Shown here in pieces: positions 9,208 to 20,617 of a stretch of 64,000 nt of DNA. Source of the stretch: an uncultured Clostridium sp. (GTDB lineage: Bacteria > Bacillota > Clostridia > TANB77 > CAG-508); contig CANSII010000002.1 in NCBI GenBank assembly GCA_947646915.1, positions 53,813-117,812 on the forward strand. The letters run 5' to 3'. The notes under the pieces are model-generated. The model saw only the letters and a list, made by a program, of their open reading frames with translations. It was not told the DNA's origin and did no database searches. How positions within the stretch are numbered: the first letter of the stretch is position 1; each line of letters starts with the position of its first letter. The position numbers and the translations under genes are program-made.

Positions 9208-9570
9208 ATGAAAAGTGGATTTAATTTTGAATTATACGAAACACTTTTTACAAATTGCTTTATTGTTAGTTCAAGATATACCAATGGAAATTTACAATTA
9301 AGTTTGTTTGGAACTGATCCAGCAACAAATGAAACAGCACATTTTGCTGATATTACACTAAATCAAAATAGCAGAATGCTAAAAGAAAACGAAATTGTAG
9401 TTGATTTCAAATATAAGCCTACAATGATACCACAATTAATTAAACTTGGTATTTTAAAGGAACAAGTTGGTATATGTGTAATAAAGGATTCTTTATATCC
9501 TATTTATACTATTGATAGAACAATGGTAAATCAAAAACAATATTGTATGCAAGAATTAGTTGCTGCATAA
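9208..9570 (+). CDS. hypothetical protein (ends ...VAA)
   Basis: 120-aa ORF with a GGAAGGAG RBS. Confidence 0.35.
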   Translation: MKSGFNFELYETLFTNCFIVSSRYTNGNLQLSLFGTDPATNETAHFADITLNQNSRMLKENEIVVDFKYKPTMIPQLIKLGILKEQVGICVIKDSLYPIYTIDRTMVNQKQYCMQELVAA

Positions 9571-9590
9571 AAAAGAAAGGAAGATTAAAA

Positions 9591-10792
9591 ATGAAAGAAA
9601 CAAGAAACTTACAATTGCCAGTTATTCGGTAGAGTTCAACATCGGAGAGCAAATTTTGGTTAATGGCAAAACAAGAGTTAAAGACTATGGATATTTCATA
9701 GCAAAAATTCAAGAAAGTAATATGCAACAATATTTAAACAAGTTTGATGAACTAATTAAGGGAAAAACAACTTTAGACATACAGCTTTTAGGCAAAGATA
9801 CATTTACTATAAAAAGAGTTAGATATAATCAAGGAGGAGCAGCTTGTTATTGTATGGATGGCGAAGATACTGGAAGAATAAAAGAAAAAAACTTATGGAA
9901 GCCAACACCATGTAATTCTAGTTGTAGTTATTTACAAAAAGATGCTAATGGAAAAACGGCATGTAATCGTATTGCTTGGCTAAAATTTTTCATTCCAGAG
10001 ATTTCAATGGATCGAATATGGCTTATGAGAATTACAGGTCAACAATCAATAGACAACATAGATGCCTATTTACAATTACAACAATTACAGGGTAATTCAT
10101 TAAATAATTTATTTACTTTATTTTTAACAAGAAAAGAACAAACAAATTTCTTAGGAAATAAATTCAATAATTATGTTTTAGATATCGTAAAAAAAGGAGA
10201 TTTTATTTCTAATTCTCAAATTCCACAAACCAAGCAAGTACAAAAAGATTTATCCACAGAAAATACTCAAAATGTGAATAACAATGTAAAAAAAGAGCAA
10301 CAAAACACAGATACAAAACCTGTTACTACTCAAAAAAGTAATACGAAAACTAAAAATGCTGAAGTTGCAAAAACAAAAGAAGATAATAAACAAATACAAA
10401 GTGAAACTACTGATATGACAGAAACAAAAGAAACAACAAAGCCTAAAAAACAGACAAAAAGTAAAACTAAAAAAGCTGAAGAAAAATCAAAAGAATCAAC
10501 AAACGAAAAACAACAAGATACTGAAAATTATGATAATTACTATGTATTTGAATCTTTATCTAGTGAAAAAATACAAACTAAATCAGGTCTAAAAGACTAT
10601 ACAATTGGAAAATTTTACGATATGCAAGATAAACAACACAATATTATAGTAAAACCTGAATATGCAAGTGAATTACAAAATTGTGAATTAGGTACACTAG
10701 TACAATTTACAGAAATTAAGGAAATTGAAGGTCGAAAGTTTGCACTAGATTTAAACTTTATTCAAAAAATGGAAAAAAATATAGCAGCATAA
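9591..10792 (+). CDS. Cys-rich hypothetical protein with K/T/Q-rich linker; needs two +1 shifts at CGG (9627..9629 and 9643..9645)
   Basis: Ideal RBS AAAGAAAGGAAG with 7-nt spacing to ATG 9591; MKETRNLQLPVI then CGG-TAG. Skipping C9627 and C9643 (net -1) joins the 400-aa frame ...G RVQH G EQILVNGKTRVKDY... Confidence 0.5.
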
Positions 10793-10906
10793 GAAAGGAA
10801 CTCTTATACTACTGTTATTCAATAAGCCATTGGCTTTGATTTATATATATTATACATGAATCAAAATACAAAAGTCAAGGCTCAAAACAAAAAAAGGAGA
10901 TATACA

Positions 10907-11122
10907 ATGCACAATGAGTTCAAGGATGGTAGCAAGGTTTTTGTATATGGTCCTGGACAAAACAATGGAAAATACTATTATAAAGAATCGGCAATAATAC
11001 TAGAACGAGACCCTTATTATCTCGATTATCATGTTCGATTCAAAGATGGTACAGAAGATTGGATTTTACCGAAATATTTACGAAAACCTTATGCTAGAAA
11101 GAAAGGAAATAAAAGAAAATGA
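10907..11122 (+). CDS. hypothetical protein
   Basis: AAGGAG RBS; ATGA start/stop overlap with the next gene. Confidence 0.35.
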   Translation: MHNEFKDGSKVFVYGPGQNNGKYYYKESAIILERDPYYLDYHVRFKDGTEDWILPKYLRKPYARKKGNKRK

Positions 11123-17834: not shown

Positions 17835-17851
17835 TTTGAAAGGAGAAATTT

Positions 17852-18274
17852 ATGGAAGGTATAGAAAGATTAGAAACGGAAGTATTAGAAATGAATGATT
17901 CTAGTGTTTCTGCAGTATTTAATTATTTAAAAACAAGGAAGGATTTGTACGAAAAATTTAATAATAAAGAGAAAACTATAAAAGAAATGTGGAACTATAT
18001 ATGTGATAAAGCTAGAAAAATGTCAAAAAATAATGTGGCAGTAGTGCAAGATAATCTTGTTTTCATATGGGCTGTTAATTACTTTACTAAAAGCAATGAA
18101 GAGCTAGGAATAAAAGAAAAAAAGACTAAAAAGGTAATGCCACCTTCAGCAGAAGAAACAATTACGAAAATTAATAGAAAAAACCACGAAAAAGCAAAGG
18201 AAAAACAAAAAGAAAGTGAACAAGCAAAAGATACAGACAATCAAATATCAATGTTTAAGGAGGAACAAAAATAA
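17852..18274 (+). CDS. hypothetical protein
   Basis: 140-aa ORF. Confidence 0.35.
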   Translation: MEGIERLETEVLEMNDSSVSAVFNYLKTRKDLYEKFNNKEKTIKEMWNYICDKARKMSKNNVAVVQDNLVFIWAVNYFTKSNEELGIKEKKTKKVMPPSAEETITKINRKNHEKAKEKQKESEQAKDTDNQISMFKEEQK

Positions 18275-19734
18275 TGGGATATATAAAAGTTGCCTATCGA
18301 AATATTTTGAGACAGTTAGACTATTATTCAGACCTCCCAAAAGGTTGGAATGAATTTATAAAAGAACAAGAAAAACATCACAATTTAGTAATAAAATCAA
18401 GCAAAAATAAATGTTTTTGCACTAATTGCCATCATCATTTTATTAGTAACAAAAAAATAAAAGAAGAAGTAAAATGTCCTAATTGCCATAATAAATACTT
18501 AATAAAAAGAAGTAATTTGCGTTATTATGAATTTAAGGACTATTTTTCTATTTTAGACAGAGTAAATGATACATTTGTAATTAGATACTTTGAATTAAAA
18601 ACAATTCTTGATGCTATGCACGAATCTCATTCTTCTGTTGTAGAATTTGCAAGAGAAATACCAACTGACAATTATTATAGAGATGTTTTTGTAAATGAAA
18701 AAGTTTCAAGATGTCAATGTCATATTTATATTAATCATAGTGATTTTTATAAAACAGATAAATGGAGACAATATACAAGAAATTACTCAATAATTGATTA
18801 TTCAATAGTGTTCCCTAACAATATAAAATCATTGTTAAAAGATACTGAATATAAATACTCTTGTATATGGGATATAGCAAAACATTCTACTTATATTGAT
18901 TTACTAGAATTAATAAAAAATAAGAATGACTATGCTATAAATAGAATTGAACTCTTAGCAAAAATGAAATTATATAATTTAGCATTAAGAGCAAATGAAT
19001 TTAGTAGTCATGGATCTTTTCAAAATATATTTGGAGTTTCAAAAGATTATTACCAATTTATGAAAAGATATAATATTACATACACACAATTAAAAATATT
19101 AAGGCTATTAAAAGAAAAAGATATAAATAAAATACGATATTTAGAAAAATTTGTAAATTATGGTGAAAGTATAAGTGATTTAGAAGAAATATCACAATAT
19201 ATTAGCTTAAATCGTTTTATAAAATATTCTAAAATGCATCGTGGAAAAGTAGGGACTTATTTATATAAGGACTATTTAAGATTTGCTAAATTACTTGGTT
19301 TTGATTTGAAAAATAATAGATATGCTTTTCCAAAGAATCTAAAAGAAGAGCATGATAAATTAGAAAAACAATATGAGCTTCAAAGTAAAAAAATCATTAA
19401 TAAAGCAATTATTAAAAGAGGTAAGGAATTATCAGCTAATAAATATCAAAATAAGACTTTTATTATATTACCAGCTCGTAGTTTAAAAGATTTACAAGAT
19501 GAAAGTAAACAACAAAATAATTGCGTAAGAACATATGCTAAAAAGTATGCTGAAGGTAGTTGCGATATTTACTTTATGAGGTCAACAGATAAACCAAAAA
19601 AATCACTTGTTACTGTGGAAGTTAAAAATAATAAAGTTGTTCAAAGTAGAATAAAAAACAATAATAATCCAAATGAAAAACAAATACAATTTCTACAAAA
19701 ATGGGAACAAAGCGTATTAAAAGAGGCAGCTTAA
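18274..19734 (+). CDS. zinc-ribbon-containing hypothetical protein (ends ...KEAA)
   Basis: CFCTNCHHHF...CPNCHNKY near the N-terminus; 486 aa. Confidence 0.35.
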   Translation: MGYIKVAYRNILRQLDYYSDLPKGWNEFIKEQEKHHNLVIKSSKNKCFCTNCHHHFISNKKIKEEVKCPNCHNKYLIKRSNLRYYEFKDYFSILDRVNDTFVIRYFELKTILDAMHESHSSVVEFAREIPTDNYYRDVFVNEKVSRCQCHIYINHSDFYKTDKWRQYTRNYSIIDYSIVFPNNIKSLLKDTEYKYSCIWDIAKHSTYIDLLELIKNKNDYAINRIELLAKMKLYNLALRANEFSSHGSFQNIFGVSKDYYQFMKRYNITYTQLKILRLLKEKDINKIRYLEKFVNYGESISDLEEISQYISLNRFIKYSKMHRGKVGTYLYKDYLRFAKLLGFDLKNNRYAFPKNLKEEHDKLEKQYELQSKKIINKAIIKRGKELSANKYQNKTFIILPARSLKDLQDESKQQNNCVRTYAKKYAEGSCDIYFMRSTDKPKKSLVTVEVKNNKVVQSRIKNNNNPNEKQIQFLQKWEQSVLKEAA

Positions 19735-19759
19735 AAAAATTGATAGGAGGATTAAAAAA

Positions 19760-20617
19760 GTGAAACATAAATCAAATAAAAATAATGGAAATAAAACAAA
19801 AGAAGTATTTGAAAAAGTTGTAAATTATGTTCAAACTATTGTTGATAATGGAGAATATGAGAAATTTTTAAAATTTCAAAAAAGTTTTAGAGGTTATAGT
19901 TTCAATAACCTCATTTTGATTTTTTCGCAATTTCCTGATGCTACAAGAGTTGCTGGAAAATCAAAATGGCTAAAATTAAAAAGAGAATTAGTACCTGGAG
20001 CGCAAAAAATATTTATTATTGCACCAATACCAAGACAATACAGTAAAAAGGTCAAAAAAGTTGAAAATGGAGAAGAAATTGAAACTACTGAAACATACCA
20101 ATATAACTATTATCGATATGTTTATGTATATGATATTTCACAGACTACTGGAGAAGAGATACCTTTAGAAAGTCATAATATCAATACCAATGAAATGTCA
20201 AATTTTTACCAAAAATTAAAAAGTTTTAGTGAATTTCCAGTTTATGAAAAAGATTTAGAAGGCAGTTTAAAAGGATATTATGCTCCAACAAAAAAAGAAA
20301 TTGTACTAAAAAAATCTTTGTCAATAGACGATAAGACAGCAGTTTTATTACACGAACTAGCACATGGGCTTTATGACGATTTTGAATATAAAACTGATAG
20401 AAACTTATCAGAGGTATTTGTTGAATCTATTGCTTATATTGTTGCAGACCATTTTGGACTTGATACTTCTCTTTGTAGTTTTAATTATATAACTAAATGG
20501 GCTAAGGGCGATCCGAAAATTGTTCTTGATTTAGGTAGTAAAATTCAAAAATGTGCTAATCAGTTCATAAAAAATATTGAAAAATTTGAAATGCAAGAAA
20601 TTGAACTTGCAGCTTAA
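19760..20617 (+). CDS. ardC: ArdC-like antirestriction protein (ssDNA-binding N-domain plus zincin-like metalloprotease)
   Basis: N-terminal DUF1738-like region and an HExxH motif LLHELAHGL; GTG start with an AGGAGGA RBS; ends ...ELAA. Confidence 0.75.
   Translation: MKHKSNKNNGNKTKEVFEKVVNYVQTIVDNGEYEKFLKFQKSFRGYSFNNLILIFSQFPDATRVAGKSKWLKLKRELVPGAQKIFIIAPIPRQYSKKVKKVENGEEIETTETYQYNYYRYVYVYDISQTTGEEIPLESHNINTNEMSNFYQKLKSFSEFPVYEKDLEGSLKGYYAPTKKEIVLKKSLSIDDKTAVLLHELAHGLYDDFEYKTDRNLSEVFVESIAYIVADHFGLDTSLCSFNYITKWAKGDPKIVLDLGSKIQKCANQFIKNIEKFEMQEIELAA

Follow-up and report, generated by a model that had tools for sequence, protein, structure and literature searches.

[Ala/Val]-Ala C-termini as putative ClpXP degrons on the proteins of an ICE operon from uncultured gut Clostridia

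Introduction

Ala-Ala-COO- is the main determinant of the ssrA (tmRNA) tag, and further proteins that end in Ala-Ala are ClpXP substrates (PMC7652416). In an unbiased screen of C-terminal pentapeptides in E. coli, 91% of the 100 highest-ranking tags ended in AA, FKLVA ranked first and the tags followed the consensus [LFYW][LAR]LAA; neutral or basic tags were favoured, and AA alone was insufficient (PMC10862746). LAA and LVA are both strong ssrA-type tags, and the ssrA/'C-motif 1' degrons include the VAA end of RseA(1-108), the AA end of CtrA and the Ala tails added by RqcH in Bacillus.

Several proteins of mobile elements are known to be unstable. MuA, the Mu repressor and lambda O are degraded by ClpXP and lambda Xis by Lon/FtsH, and P1 Phd, further antitoxins and RK2 TrfA are other examples. 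Here we describe [Ala/Val]-Ala C-termini (hereafter, tags) on proteins of an ICE operon and compare them with these systems.

Results

Ala-Ala ends are concentrated in one operon

The window, the whole 64,000-nucleotide stretch of DNA that was analyzed, contains seven ORFs with Ala-Ala C-termini on the + strand between 9.2 and 20.6 kb. By end coordinate their tails are VAA (9570), IAA (10792), KAA (13105), IAA (14405), EAA (17438), EAA (19734) and LAA (20617), which reproduces exactly every end and tail listed in the first-pass annotation. The terminal nine bases are GCTGCATAA at 9570 and 13105, GCAGCATAA at 10792, 14405 and 17438, and GCAGCTTAA at 19734 and 20617. An eighth tagged protein, absent from that list, is encoded by the ORF at 22534-23406 and ends in KVA. 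Across the family of elements to which this one belongs, [Ala/Val]-Ala ends are found on about one third of the proteins of this long operon. The enrichment of AA termini is large: with ORF calls that are crude, in a window with several frameshift-like disruptions, 7 of 24 + strand ORFs at 9.0-23.5 kb end in AA vs 0 of the 75 other ORFs in the window (Fisher P ~2e-5; binomial P ~3e-15). In overall composition, Ala accounts for 3.9% of residues and AA for 0.14% of internal dipeptides. The pattern far exceeds chance.

The operon (~9.2-23.4 kb, + strand) is part of an ICE of uncultured low-GC gut Clostridia. A tyrosine integrase (961..2706, - strand) adjoins tRNA-Lys/Glu/Thr (504-777), and this site is probably the left end of the integrated element. 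The element's conjugation (T4SS) and surface-adhesin module lies on the - strand (33320..51877) and holds coupling-protein fragments (37119-39214), VirB4-like fragments (about 47131-50170), a sortase, SpaA and thioester adhesins and an M23 peptidase; it has no ORF with an [AV]A end. Neither an oriT nor a relaxase was located. The earlier description of the operon as a replication module is only loosely right, since DNA-processing genes are mixed there with anti-defence and establishment genes.

Tagged and untagged proteins of the operon

The first gene of the operon (9208..9570, + strand) encodes a 120-aa protein that has no match in Pfam, PHROG or NCBIfam, ends in ELVAA and is tagged in all 14 orthologues (11 AA, 3 VA). 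The Gp3-like (RDF-like, PF18897) protein (9560..10792, + strand) ends in KNIAA and is tagged in 15 of 17 orthologues; its true start is uncertain because two 1-nt insertions disrupt the N-terminal ~20 codons. A Rad50/SbcC-like coiled-coil ATPase (11429..13105, + strand; tail IQKAA) contains a CPTC zinc hook and Walker B (LPLFIDDAES), and is here without the Walker A N-terminus that 660-aa homologues have. The orthologues in all 16 loci are tagged, and its family keeps the [AV]A end in 116 of 120 database clusters despite ~38 different octapeptide tails. The DUF3846 protein (13989..14405, + strand; tail IFNIAA) is tagged in 15 of 15 loci, and an AA end is present in 119 of 120 database clusters. 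Its tails read F-[KN]-[ILKMV]-A-A, and the orthologue in locus L008 ends in exactly FKLVA. In the AlphaFold model of DUF3846 the tag is the free end of a long, solitary, low-confidence C-terminal helix.

SSB (15398..15832, + strand), an internal untagged control within the operon, has instead a C-terminal DLPF motif of its own, conserved in 14 of 16 loci. Downstream, a 91-aa protein (phrog_3489; 17163..17438, + strand) ends in MEEAA and is tagged in 15 of 15 orthologues (10 VA, 5 AA). PcfK (17852..18274, + strand), whose plasmid homologues carry the NCBI name AcrIIA9 family, is untagged here (QISMFKEEQK) and ends in EVA or AA in 6 of 18 orthologues, a distribution that shows gain and loss of the tag. 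PcfJ (18274..19734, + strand; tail VLKEAA) is tagged in 18 of 18 loci (10 VA, 8 AA); in its model (pLDDT 94) the tag closes an ordered helix, residues 468-485, with no floppy tail. The protein with ArdC-N and metallopeptidase domains (19760..20617, + strand) ends in IELAA; of 14 orthologues 5 are tagged, and the remaining ones end in AS, AR, AI or SA. The last tagged protein is a CHC2 zinc-finger primase-like protein (22335..23406, + strand; tail LNKVA), the gene for which is split here into 22335-22571 and 22534-23406 and forms one ORF of 354-360 aa in L001 and L015. A terminator (23409-23446) lies 3' of it.

The ending is constrained as protein

The first-pass annotation had described a conserved GC(A/T)GC(A/T)TAA nonamer immediately followed by an RBS. 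An RBS does follow at four junctions (9570, 14405, 19734 and 20617) but not at 10792, 13105 or 17438. A hairpin and a gap of at least 63 nt lie 3' of 10792; an intrinsic terminator (13108..13135, + strand) directly 3' of the tagged Rad50-like gene leaves the junction at 13105 without a following RBS; and 3 nt separate 17438 from the next ATG, so that any RBS would fall within the MEEAA codons.

Nor is the nonamer conserved as DNA among the orthologues in our comparison set of 17 related loci, drawn from metagenomes and from distinct species-level genomes. The last codon is GCA in 59 cases, GCT in 18 and GCC in 1; the penultimate codon is GCT in 31, GCA in 26, GTA in 11, GTT in 7 and GTG in 4; the stop codon is TAA in 61, TAG in 16 and TGA in 3. 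Synonymous Ala codon choice at the tag is close to internal usage. The ortholog groups are bimodal, with six tagged at 88-100%, three at 33-56% and all others, SSB and S6-like proteins among them, at 0%. In five of the six fully tagged groups the terminal Ala has zero entropy, compared with 0.4-2.6 bits at positions -3 to -10. Since [Ala/Val]-Ala is kept while upstream residues, third codon positions and stops vary, the constraint lies on the protein rather than on a DNA boundary sequence.

The tag follows the element family

L001-L015 together yield 376 crude ORFs, of which 99 have an AA or VA end. More divergent relatives with a tagged PcfJ have tagged neighbours as well (6 of 19 ORFs in L016, 3 of 7 in L017), while no tagged ORFs were found in L018 (0/21), phage L021 (0/34) or L022 (0/4). 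Among distant PcfJ representatives only 8 of 105 are tagged, and of 48 unique tails of PcfJ homologues in phages, 7 end in [AV]A. A set of 80 viral contigs that carry PcfJ has 2 tags on 2,229 other ORFs, against an expectation of 5-10 from composition, and the PcfJ plasmids pCF10-like EF62pB (0/47) and pCLK (0/23) contain no tags among 70 ORFs. The tag is thus a trait of the element family and not of the protein families.

The motif matches ClpXP specificity

The last position of the motif is strictly Ala, the penultimate one is Ala or Val, and position -5 is mostly hydrophobic (L, F or I in 68% of tails vs 37% in the background). It matches the published specificity of ClpXP as determined in E. 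coli, rather than in Clostridia. Against a degron, several tails have acidic residues at -3 or -4 (MEEAA, LKEAA, IELAA). No tmRNA was found in the window or in 16 related loci.

Discussion

We infer, with somewhat better than even confidence, that the [Ala/Val]-Ala ends are built-in ClpXP degrons which natural selection retains on the establishment, anti-defence and DNA-processing proteins of this ICE. Degrons were one of two explanations offered by the first-pass annotation, and the protein-level constraint, the ClpXP-like motif and the absence of the ending from other ORFs of comparable low-GC mobile elements are all consistent with them. The set would comprise the 120-aa protein, the Gp3-like protein, the Rad50/SbcC-like ATPase, DUF3846, the 91-aa protein, PcfJ, the ArdC-like and primase-like proteins and, in some relatives, PcfK. 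The host AAA+ unfoldase ClpX would read the free carboxylate and the last two small residues, helped by the hydrophobic residue at -5 and often another at -3, and would hand the tagged protein to ClpP, giving the element's proteins short, ClpXP-dependent lifetimes. Tagged activities, which target DNA or host defence and could be costly, would then last only while the operon is transcribed, upon induction or after entry, and leaky expression of the integrated copy would be removed by degradation. The transient expression after transfer that had been suggested for these proteins is plausible. With many co-expressed proteins carrying one degron, their levels would be coupled to spare ClpXP capacity. 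Access to the tag of PcfJ may be limited or conditional, given its ordered helix in the model, and the near universality of ClpXP does not by itself explain why this element family alone would use such a signal. If the degron reading is true, the element writes short lifetimes into its own proteins.

The same ending might instead be a short linear motif for a partner other than ClpX, such as a hub or protease of the element itself (the ArdC-like metallopeptidase domain, for instance) or another carboxylate-reading host factor, that assembles or processes a multi-protein complex. The operon does use C-terminal peptide motifs (DDLPF in SSB, and in PcfK a Q-[ILV]-[ST]-[LIM]-F that resembles the beta-clamp-binding motif), the trait is specific to the family, and the PcfJ and DUF3846 models place the tags at helix ends. 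We nonetheless consider such a partner unlikely: Pfam, PHROGs, NCBIfam and PADLOC revealed no PDZ/TPR peptide-binding candidate in the operon, the motif coincides exactly with that of ClpX, the best-characterised carboxylate reader, and its gain and loss in PcfK and the ArdC-like and primase-like proteins fit a modular degron more easily than an obligate docking site. An export signal is a quite doubtful alternative, in which the element's coupling protein would read phi-x-x-[AV]-A-COOH and the T4SS would inject the primase-like, ArdC-like, PcfJ, Rad50-like and other proteins into the recipient with the DNA. Primases and ArdC-type proteins are classic candidates for conjugative co-transfer. 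A T4SS and its coupling protein are encoded in the element, and a signal co-evolving with that coupling protein would explain the family specificity; conjugative systems co-transfer many plasmid proteins, some via C-terminal signals (PMC8406263, PMC11288057). Known signals of this kind are, however, fuzzy properties of charge or hydrophobicity over 20-50 residues, whereas the tails here have one invariant terminal residue, and over their last 20 residues the net charge ranges without trend from -2 to +4. The RDF-like protein and the Rad50-like ATPase would be odd cargo, SSB as the most obvious cargo is untagged, as are the conjugative plasmids EF62pB and pCLK, and phages, which have no T4SS, still have some PcfJ homologues with [AV]A ends.

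That GCWGCWTAA acts as DNA or RNA, either as a recombination boundary driving modular exchange, as the first-pass annotation had also proposed, or as a termination/re-initiation context, is very improbable. The nonamer is common to all seven junctions in the window, with an RBS after four, and the gene content just past some tagged genes is variable, as it is beyond 13105 and 14405. But similarity among the junctions stops at this 9-nt codon string, too short for homologous recombination; among orthologues the amino acids are fixed while synonymous positions and stops are free, and the AA/VA alternation is a second-position change. Variable cassettes also start behind genes that lack the tag, SSB being one. 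Terminators lie at the ends of two tagged genes, and the ending is therefore not a translational coupling device; gaps to the next gene run from 3 to at least 63 nt, and untagged genes of the operon are equally tightly coupled. Chance, composition or an annotation artefact, which the crude ORF calls and frameshift-like disruptions might suggest, is refuted by the binomial probability in the window, by repetition of the pattern in 17 loci, by the agreement of 235 of 240 database clusters of the Rad50-like and DUF3846 families, and by the low-GC controls, in which ~0.1% are tagged.

A full-text literature search returned no report of a mobile element with one degron across much of an operon. The operon resembles the leading-region establishment and anti-defence islands of conjugative plasmids (PMC11541004; pLS20 establishment genes, PMC6294495) in its co-oriented array of ssb, ArdC-like anti-restriction protein, PcfK (an AcrIIA9-family homologue), orphan methyltransferase fragment and PcfJ, and in the transient action expected of it. 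Transience in those islands is ascribed to transcription (ssDNA promoters, repression), and the leading-region studies consulted contain no discussion of proteolysis of these proteins; the layer proposed here would be post-translational. T4SS translocation signals (the Arg-rich tails of VirB/D4 substrates, Dot/Icm, the F-plasmid 'conjutome'; PMC11288057) share with the tags a C-terminal position on several unrelated proteins and a T4SS in the element, but are compositional over 20-50 residues rather than a strict dipeptide with trendless charge. As for MuA, lambda O and other unstable mobile-element proteins, host AAA+ proteases are proposed here to limit the lifetime of replication, recombination or regulatory proteins, although the signals in those cases are diverse and protein-specific and here there is one common ending. 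That ending is closest to ssrA and C-motif 1, with which it shares the free Ala-Ala or Val-Ala, the upstream hydrophobic residues and a strict last and slightly relaxed penultimate residue (PMC7652416; PMC10862746). Whereas ssrA-type cases are post-translational quality-control tags or concern single regulators, the putative degron described here is genome-encoded and is carried by six to nine functionally unrelated proteins of one mobile-element operon, inherited as a family trait.

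Results

All seven Ala-Ala (AA) C-termini listed in the first-pass annotation exist, in ORFs with stops at 9570, 10792, 13105, 14405, 17438, 19734 and 20617 and terminal residues VAA, IAA, KAA, IAA, EAA, EAA and LAA, respectively, and each is encoded by GC(A/T)GC(A/T)TAA. When we analyzed 99 ORFs (minimum length 60 aa) called crudely and without overlap, these seven were the only AA-ended ORFs in 64 kb, and all lay within one plus-strand gene array. The G+C content of the window is 26%, Ala accounts for 3.9% of residues and the internal AA dipeptide for 0.14%; against this baseline the enrichment that the annotation implied was borne out, with AA ends in 7 of 24 ORFs in the array versus 0 of 75 others (binomial P ~3e-15; Fisher P ~2e-5). 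An eighth array protein, encoded at 22534-23406, ends in KVA, so that seven AA and one VA free C-termini, the form of end found in ssrA-like degrons, occur in the window; we refer to either ending as [AV]A and to proteins carrying it as tagged. The further claim that a ribosome-binding site directly follows each AA end held for four junctions only and failed for the remaining three. A terminator lies directly 3' of 13105 and another 3' of 23406, the next start is 3 nt past 17438, and 10792 is followed by a hairpin, with the next gene at least 63 nt away. A terminator scan scored this imperfect 13-bp hairpin (10783-10813) as a minus-strand terminator-like structure; its 5' arm is formed by the AA-stop codons of the gene ending at 10792 (AGCAGCATAAGAA), which pair with CTCTTATACTACT.

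The window is an integrative conjugative element (ICE), as judged from a tyrosine integrase adjoining three tRNA genes at its left end, the presence of T4SS genes and the lack of phage structural genes; a prophage identity was dropped on the latter two grounds, searches of Pfam and PHROGs having returned no phage structural matches for the ORFs at 22.5-28.3 kb and 32011-33099. T4SS and surface genes occupy 33-52 kb on the minus strand and comprise coupling-protein and VirB4-like fragments, a sortase, SpaA and thioester adhesins and an M23 peptidase. The matches to coupling protein PF02534 (T4SS-DNA_transf; 37119-38006) and to TraG P-loop and AAA_10 (47900-48589) fall in apparently fragmented genes, and the ORFs scanned yielded neither a relaxase nor an oriT.

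The tagged array is the DNA-processing, anti-defence and establishment module of this ICE. By Pfam, its genes, all on the plus strand, encode a Gp3-like (RDF-like) protein (9560-10792), DUF3846 (13989-14405), two ribosomal-protein-S6-like proteins (14425-15075 and 15093-15377; E 1e-12 and 7e-25), SSB (15398-15832), PcfK (17852-18274), PcfJ (18274-19734) and a protein with ArdC-N and metallopeptidase domains (19760-20617). Also on this strand are a Rad50/SbcC-like coiled-coil ATPase of 558 aa, with a CPTC hook and Walker B (660-aa homologues also have Walker A), and a primase-like protein with a CHC2 primase-type zinc finger (22335-23406). SSB, ArdC-N, PcfK, an N6-methyltransferase fragment and PcfJ together form the kind of co-oriented array of ssb and anti-defence genes expected of a leading-region or establishment island; plasmid homologues of PcfK are assigned to the AcrIIA9 family in NCBI annotation. 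Searches of PHROGs, NCBIfam, PADLOC and PDB sequences returned no function for the 120-aa, 91-aa, Gp3-like and primase-like proteins, and megablast of 9-21 kb against plasmid and phage collections returned no match.

Several features of the element lie outside the question of the endings. The pair of S6 homologues sits directly upstream of the element ssb, an arrangement kept in 13 loci, and copies the order of the chromosomal rpsF-ssb(-rpsR) arrangement; the 216-aa S6 copy has an additional C-terminal half to which no function was assigned. At the element edge (30581-31321) is a Spo0A-like response regulator (receiver and Spo0A_C), with paralogues of 28-38% identity in several related loci (L001 16983-17723, L005 11721-12446 and L014 814-1506), which may be an element-borne Spo0A mimic and not the host sporulation regulator. 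The region 3' of the tagged operon (23506-28323) encodes an apparently fragmented Lgt (prolipoprotein diacylglyceryl transferase) and a 439-aa putative lipoprotein with a weak match to the SP0191 family, and probably serves the ICE as a surface or cargo module.

Small indels appear to break many genes of the window (9591-9660; 22335-22571 with 22534-23406; 37119-39214; ~47131-50170; 11122-11429; 13151-13967; 23506-24752). The N-terminus of the Gp3-like protein fits those of related loci L006 and L007 only after two single-C deletions, and that of the L001 ORF is likewise out of frame. The primase-like gene is split in the window and intact in L001 and L015 (354-360 aa), the coupling protein and VirB4 genes are each in several pieces, the Rad50-like gene lacks the Walker A exon-equivalent, and the N6-methyltransferase gene is fragmented. 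The cause of these disruptions is either element decay or homopolymer assembly errors.

The same array was found in fifteen species-representative genomes of uncultured gut Clostridia, with PcfJ 70-92% identical, and among 376 crude ORFs of the related loci L001-L015, 54 end in AA and 45 in VA. When ortholog groups were built by clustering the window with L001-L017, the share of [AV]A ends was bimodal. Six groups carry the ending in 88-100% of members, namely the 120-aa protein (14/14), Gp3-like protein (15/17), Rad50-like protein (16/16), DUF3846 (15/15), 91-aa protein (15/15) and PcfJ (18/18); PcfK (33%), ArdC-like (36%) and primase-like (56%) proteins are intermediate, and every other group, including SSB (which ends ...DLPF) and the S6-like proteins, stands at 0%. 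The entropy of the terminal Ala is zero in five of the six fully tagged groups and the penultimate residue is Ala or Val, while positions -3 to -10 (counting from the last residue as -1) vary by 0.4-2.6 bits. The final codon is GCA in 59 cases, GCT in 18 and GCC in 1 (internal Ala usage 55%, 38% and 6%), the second-last codon is GCT (31), GCA (26), GTA (11), GTT (7) or GTG (4), and the stop is TAA (61), TAG (16) or TGA (3). Database searches at E ≤ 0.001 matched 597 proteins for DUF3846 and 1,157 for the Rad50-like protein. An AA end was present in 119 of 120 DUF3846 clusters (at least 70% identical), where residue -3 is I, L, K, M or V, and an [AV]A end in 116 of 120 Rad50-like clusters, spread over ~38 distinct octapeptide tails.

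These near-invariant amino acids, kept despite varying upstream residues, codons and stops, bear the signature of selection on the C-terminal dipeptide of the protein. The first-pass annotation had offered as one explanation a conserved DNA boundary for modular exchange. This is contradicted by the alignments, in which third codon positions and stops vary among orthologues and the seven junctions share 9 nt and nothing further; a boundary block was therefore excluded, the constraint being on the protein and not on nucleotides.

The ending does not follow the protein families at a distance. An exhaustive search returned 105 full-length PcfJ representatives (27-53% identity), only 8 of which end in AA or VA. 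In five neighborhoods of PcfJ representatives (L016, L017, L018, L021 and L022; G+C 24-28%), a tagged PcfJ was accompanied by tagged neighbors. L016, with the same synteny (PcfJ 35% identity), has 6 of 19 ORFs tagged, and L017, with a different gene set (PcfJ 34% identity), has 3 of 7, including PcfK (...SLFAA). The loci with an untagged PcfJ have no tagged neighbors (0/21 in L018, 0/34 in L021 and 0/4 in L022); L021 is a genuine phage with terminase and portal. As a larger control we used 80 PcfJ-carrying IMG/VR contigs, many of them matching in G+C, on which 2 of 2,229 non-PcfJ ORFs have an [AV]A end versus 5-10 predicted by composition, a shortfall that does no more than suggest depletion and varies with the null model. 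Two PcfJ plasmids, the conjugative, pCF10-type EF62pB (0/47) and pCLK (0/23), are also without tags. On this comparison of sequences the [AV]A ending is a trait of the element family; the view that it comes with the PcfJ, DUF3846 or Rad50 fold as part of the structure was rejected, distant PcfJ homologues mostly lacking it.

The PcfJ homologues on the IMG/VR contigs end in [AV]A in 7 of 48 unique tails. Phage tails of this kind include GKVAA, ERKVA, QDKAA and HPRAA (loci L030, L066, L070, L075, L077 and L089-L103), and many others are near-variants (VAV, VAI, KAS, MAS and KSA), whereas the neighbors of these PcfJ genes never end in this way; this type of ending may recurrently target PcfJ. In a region of Vescimonas fastidiosa plasmid pMM35_02 (L025; 55% G+C), 3 of 33 ORFs are tagged, all in the PcfJ module. 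In this Oscillospiraceae element the tagged ORFs lie in the same plus-strand module (6712-8148, 14042-16057 and 18350-19705) and have the ends EEAA, KTAA and AVA, on a lambda-exonuclease-family protein, PcfJ and a hypothetical protein; a rough estimate gives ~0.5 tagged ORFs expected per 33. Multi-protein tagging may extend beyond the low-GC family.

Two further observations concern the PcfK and PcfJ proteins themselves. Past a charged linker, PcfK (AcrIIA9-family) ends in, or shortly after, a conserved Q-[ILV]-[ST]-[LIM]-F motif in the window (17852-18274; ...NQISMFKEEQK), L001-L017, phage L021 (4012-4419; ...GQLSLF), the pCF10-type plasmid L023 (15378-16151; ...EQIKLFEL) and pCLK (L024 3338-3919; ...LQVSLFDL). 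The canonical beta-sliding-clamp-binding pentapeptide is QL[SD]LF, and the match of the PcfK motif to it suggests that PcfK docks on DnaN. The AlphaFold model of PcfJ is very confident (mean pLDDT 93.8, pTM 0.81), with an N-terminal zinc-ribbon/beta-rich half and a C-terminal half that is helical plus alpha/beta. Searched against the PDB with Foldseek, this model had no significant match (best E 0.1), and PcfJ remains a widespread mobile-element protein without a solved relative.

Discussion

The motif shared by the tagged proteins consists of a strict Ala at -1, Ala or Val at -2 and, in most tails, a hydrophobic residue at -5, with little else fixed. In family-balanced tails, -5 is hydrophobic in 68% versus 37% in the background (L 36%, F 17%). 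Position -3 holds a hydrophobic residue in 48% of tails, an acidic one in 19% and a basic one in 20%. Such a strict terminal pattern is as expected from a reader of the free carboxylate, and the cytosolic reader known to have this specificity is ClpX. When C-terminal pentapeptides were screened without bias in E. coli, AA ends made up 91% of the top 100 tags, the top tag, FKLVA, was ClpXP-dependent, and the consensus was [L/F/Y/W]-[L/A/R]-L-A-A; a hydrophobic or aromatic -5 and a Leu-like -3 were favored, Gly/Ser-rich upstream residues were not, and AA by itself was insufficient (PMC10862746). ClpXP also degrades other proteins that end in Ala-Ala or carry Ala tails (PMC7652416). The tails of DUF3846 read F-[K/N]-[I/L/K/M/V]-A-A, the L008 orthologue ending exactly in ...FKLVA, and the AA/VA alternation in the element proteins parallels the tag pair LAA and LVA. 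An acidic residue stands at -3 or -4 in several tails, and those of the MEEAA and LKEAA type are predicted to be weaker in E. coli. On tag accessibility the AlphaFold models are mixed, with the tag modeled at the end of a solitary helix of low confidence in DUF3846 (pLDDT 57-68) and ending an ordered helix (468-485) in PcfJ (residues 481-486, mean pLDDT 84). ARAGORN found no tmRNA in the window or in 16 loci. Built-in ClpXP degrons, one of the two explanations first proposed, are the best-supported mechanism given the carboxylate-reader pattern and the match to published ClpX specificity, and we favor them with moderate confidence; they would give short lifetimes to element proteins acting on DNA or host defences.

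Degradation alone does not account for the restriction of the ending to one element family, because ClpXP is universal. A T4SS export signal that the coupling protein of the element itself reads would account for this restriction: the element has both a T4SS and a coupling protein (both genes are apparently fragmented), and conjugative systems export many proteins, some via C-terminal signals (PMC8406263, PMC11288057). Known T4SS C-terminal signals, however, are compositional and lie in positive charge and/or hydrophobicity over the last 20-50 residues, whereas the last 20 residues of the eight tagged proteins have net charges of 0, +2, +1, +4, 0, 0, -2 and 0, with no trend, and have in common only the terminal dipeptide and the hydrophobic -5. 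SSB is untagged, phages also have tagged PcfJ homologues and PcfJ-carrying T4SS plasmids are without tags, and we consider export unlikely. Docking onto another hub is a conceivable role for the ending, as the operon does use C-terminal peptide motifs (...DLPF in SSB and Q-x-[ST]-x-F in PcfK), but Pfam, PHROGs, NCBIfam and PADLOC searches of the operon yielded no candidate reader. A role in translational coupling was excluded, because terminators follow two tagged genes and untagged operon genes are coupled just as tightly.

Taken jointly, all forms of an element-specific reading of [AV]A-COOH beyond simple degradation strike us as unlikely. The ending would then label six to nine unrelated proteins with an address, in place of a degradation mark or in addition to one. 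As a minimal T4SS signal it would send the primase-like, ArdC-like, PcfJ and Rad50-like proteins to the recipient, and in dual use donors would rely on ClpX to unfold these proteins ahead of export, whereas in recipients ClpX would destroy them. Should the ending prove to be an export or docking signal, Gram-positive conjugation would gain a minimal C-terminal address of a new kind. Within the degron reading, a shared degron would couple the whole early module to spare ClpXP, and proteolytic queueing would let the element sense host translational or proteotoxic stress (tmRNA load).

If the endings are degrons, short lifetimes are programmed into about a third of the proteins of a DNA-processing and anti-defence operon by a tag borrowed from the cell's own quality control, in an element family that is widespread (15 species-level genomes of uncultured gut Clostridia). 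Degrons would add a post-translational layer to the 'transient establishment gene' logic, so far explained by transcription, would tie element protein levels to host ClpXP load through one common degron, and would make Clostridia a source of natural, graded ClpXP tags (xAA and xVA, with acidic or hydrophobic -3). The interest lies mainly in a cheap test and in a possible proteolytic layer in element establishment. The literature searched holds no report of degrons in leading-region or ICE proteins, and the leading-region papers examined do not discuss proteolysis of these proteins. In comparison, ssrA-like degrons on single regulators and unstable phage and plasmid proteins are already well known; what is new relative to the literature searched is one degron-like ending across six to nine unrelated operon proteins and, likewise, the inheritance of that shared ending as an element-family trait.
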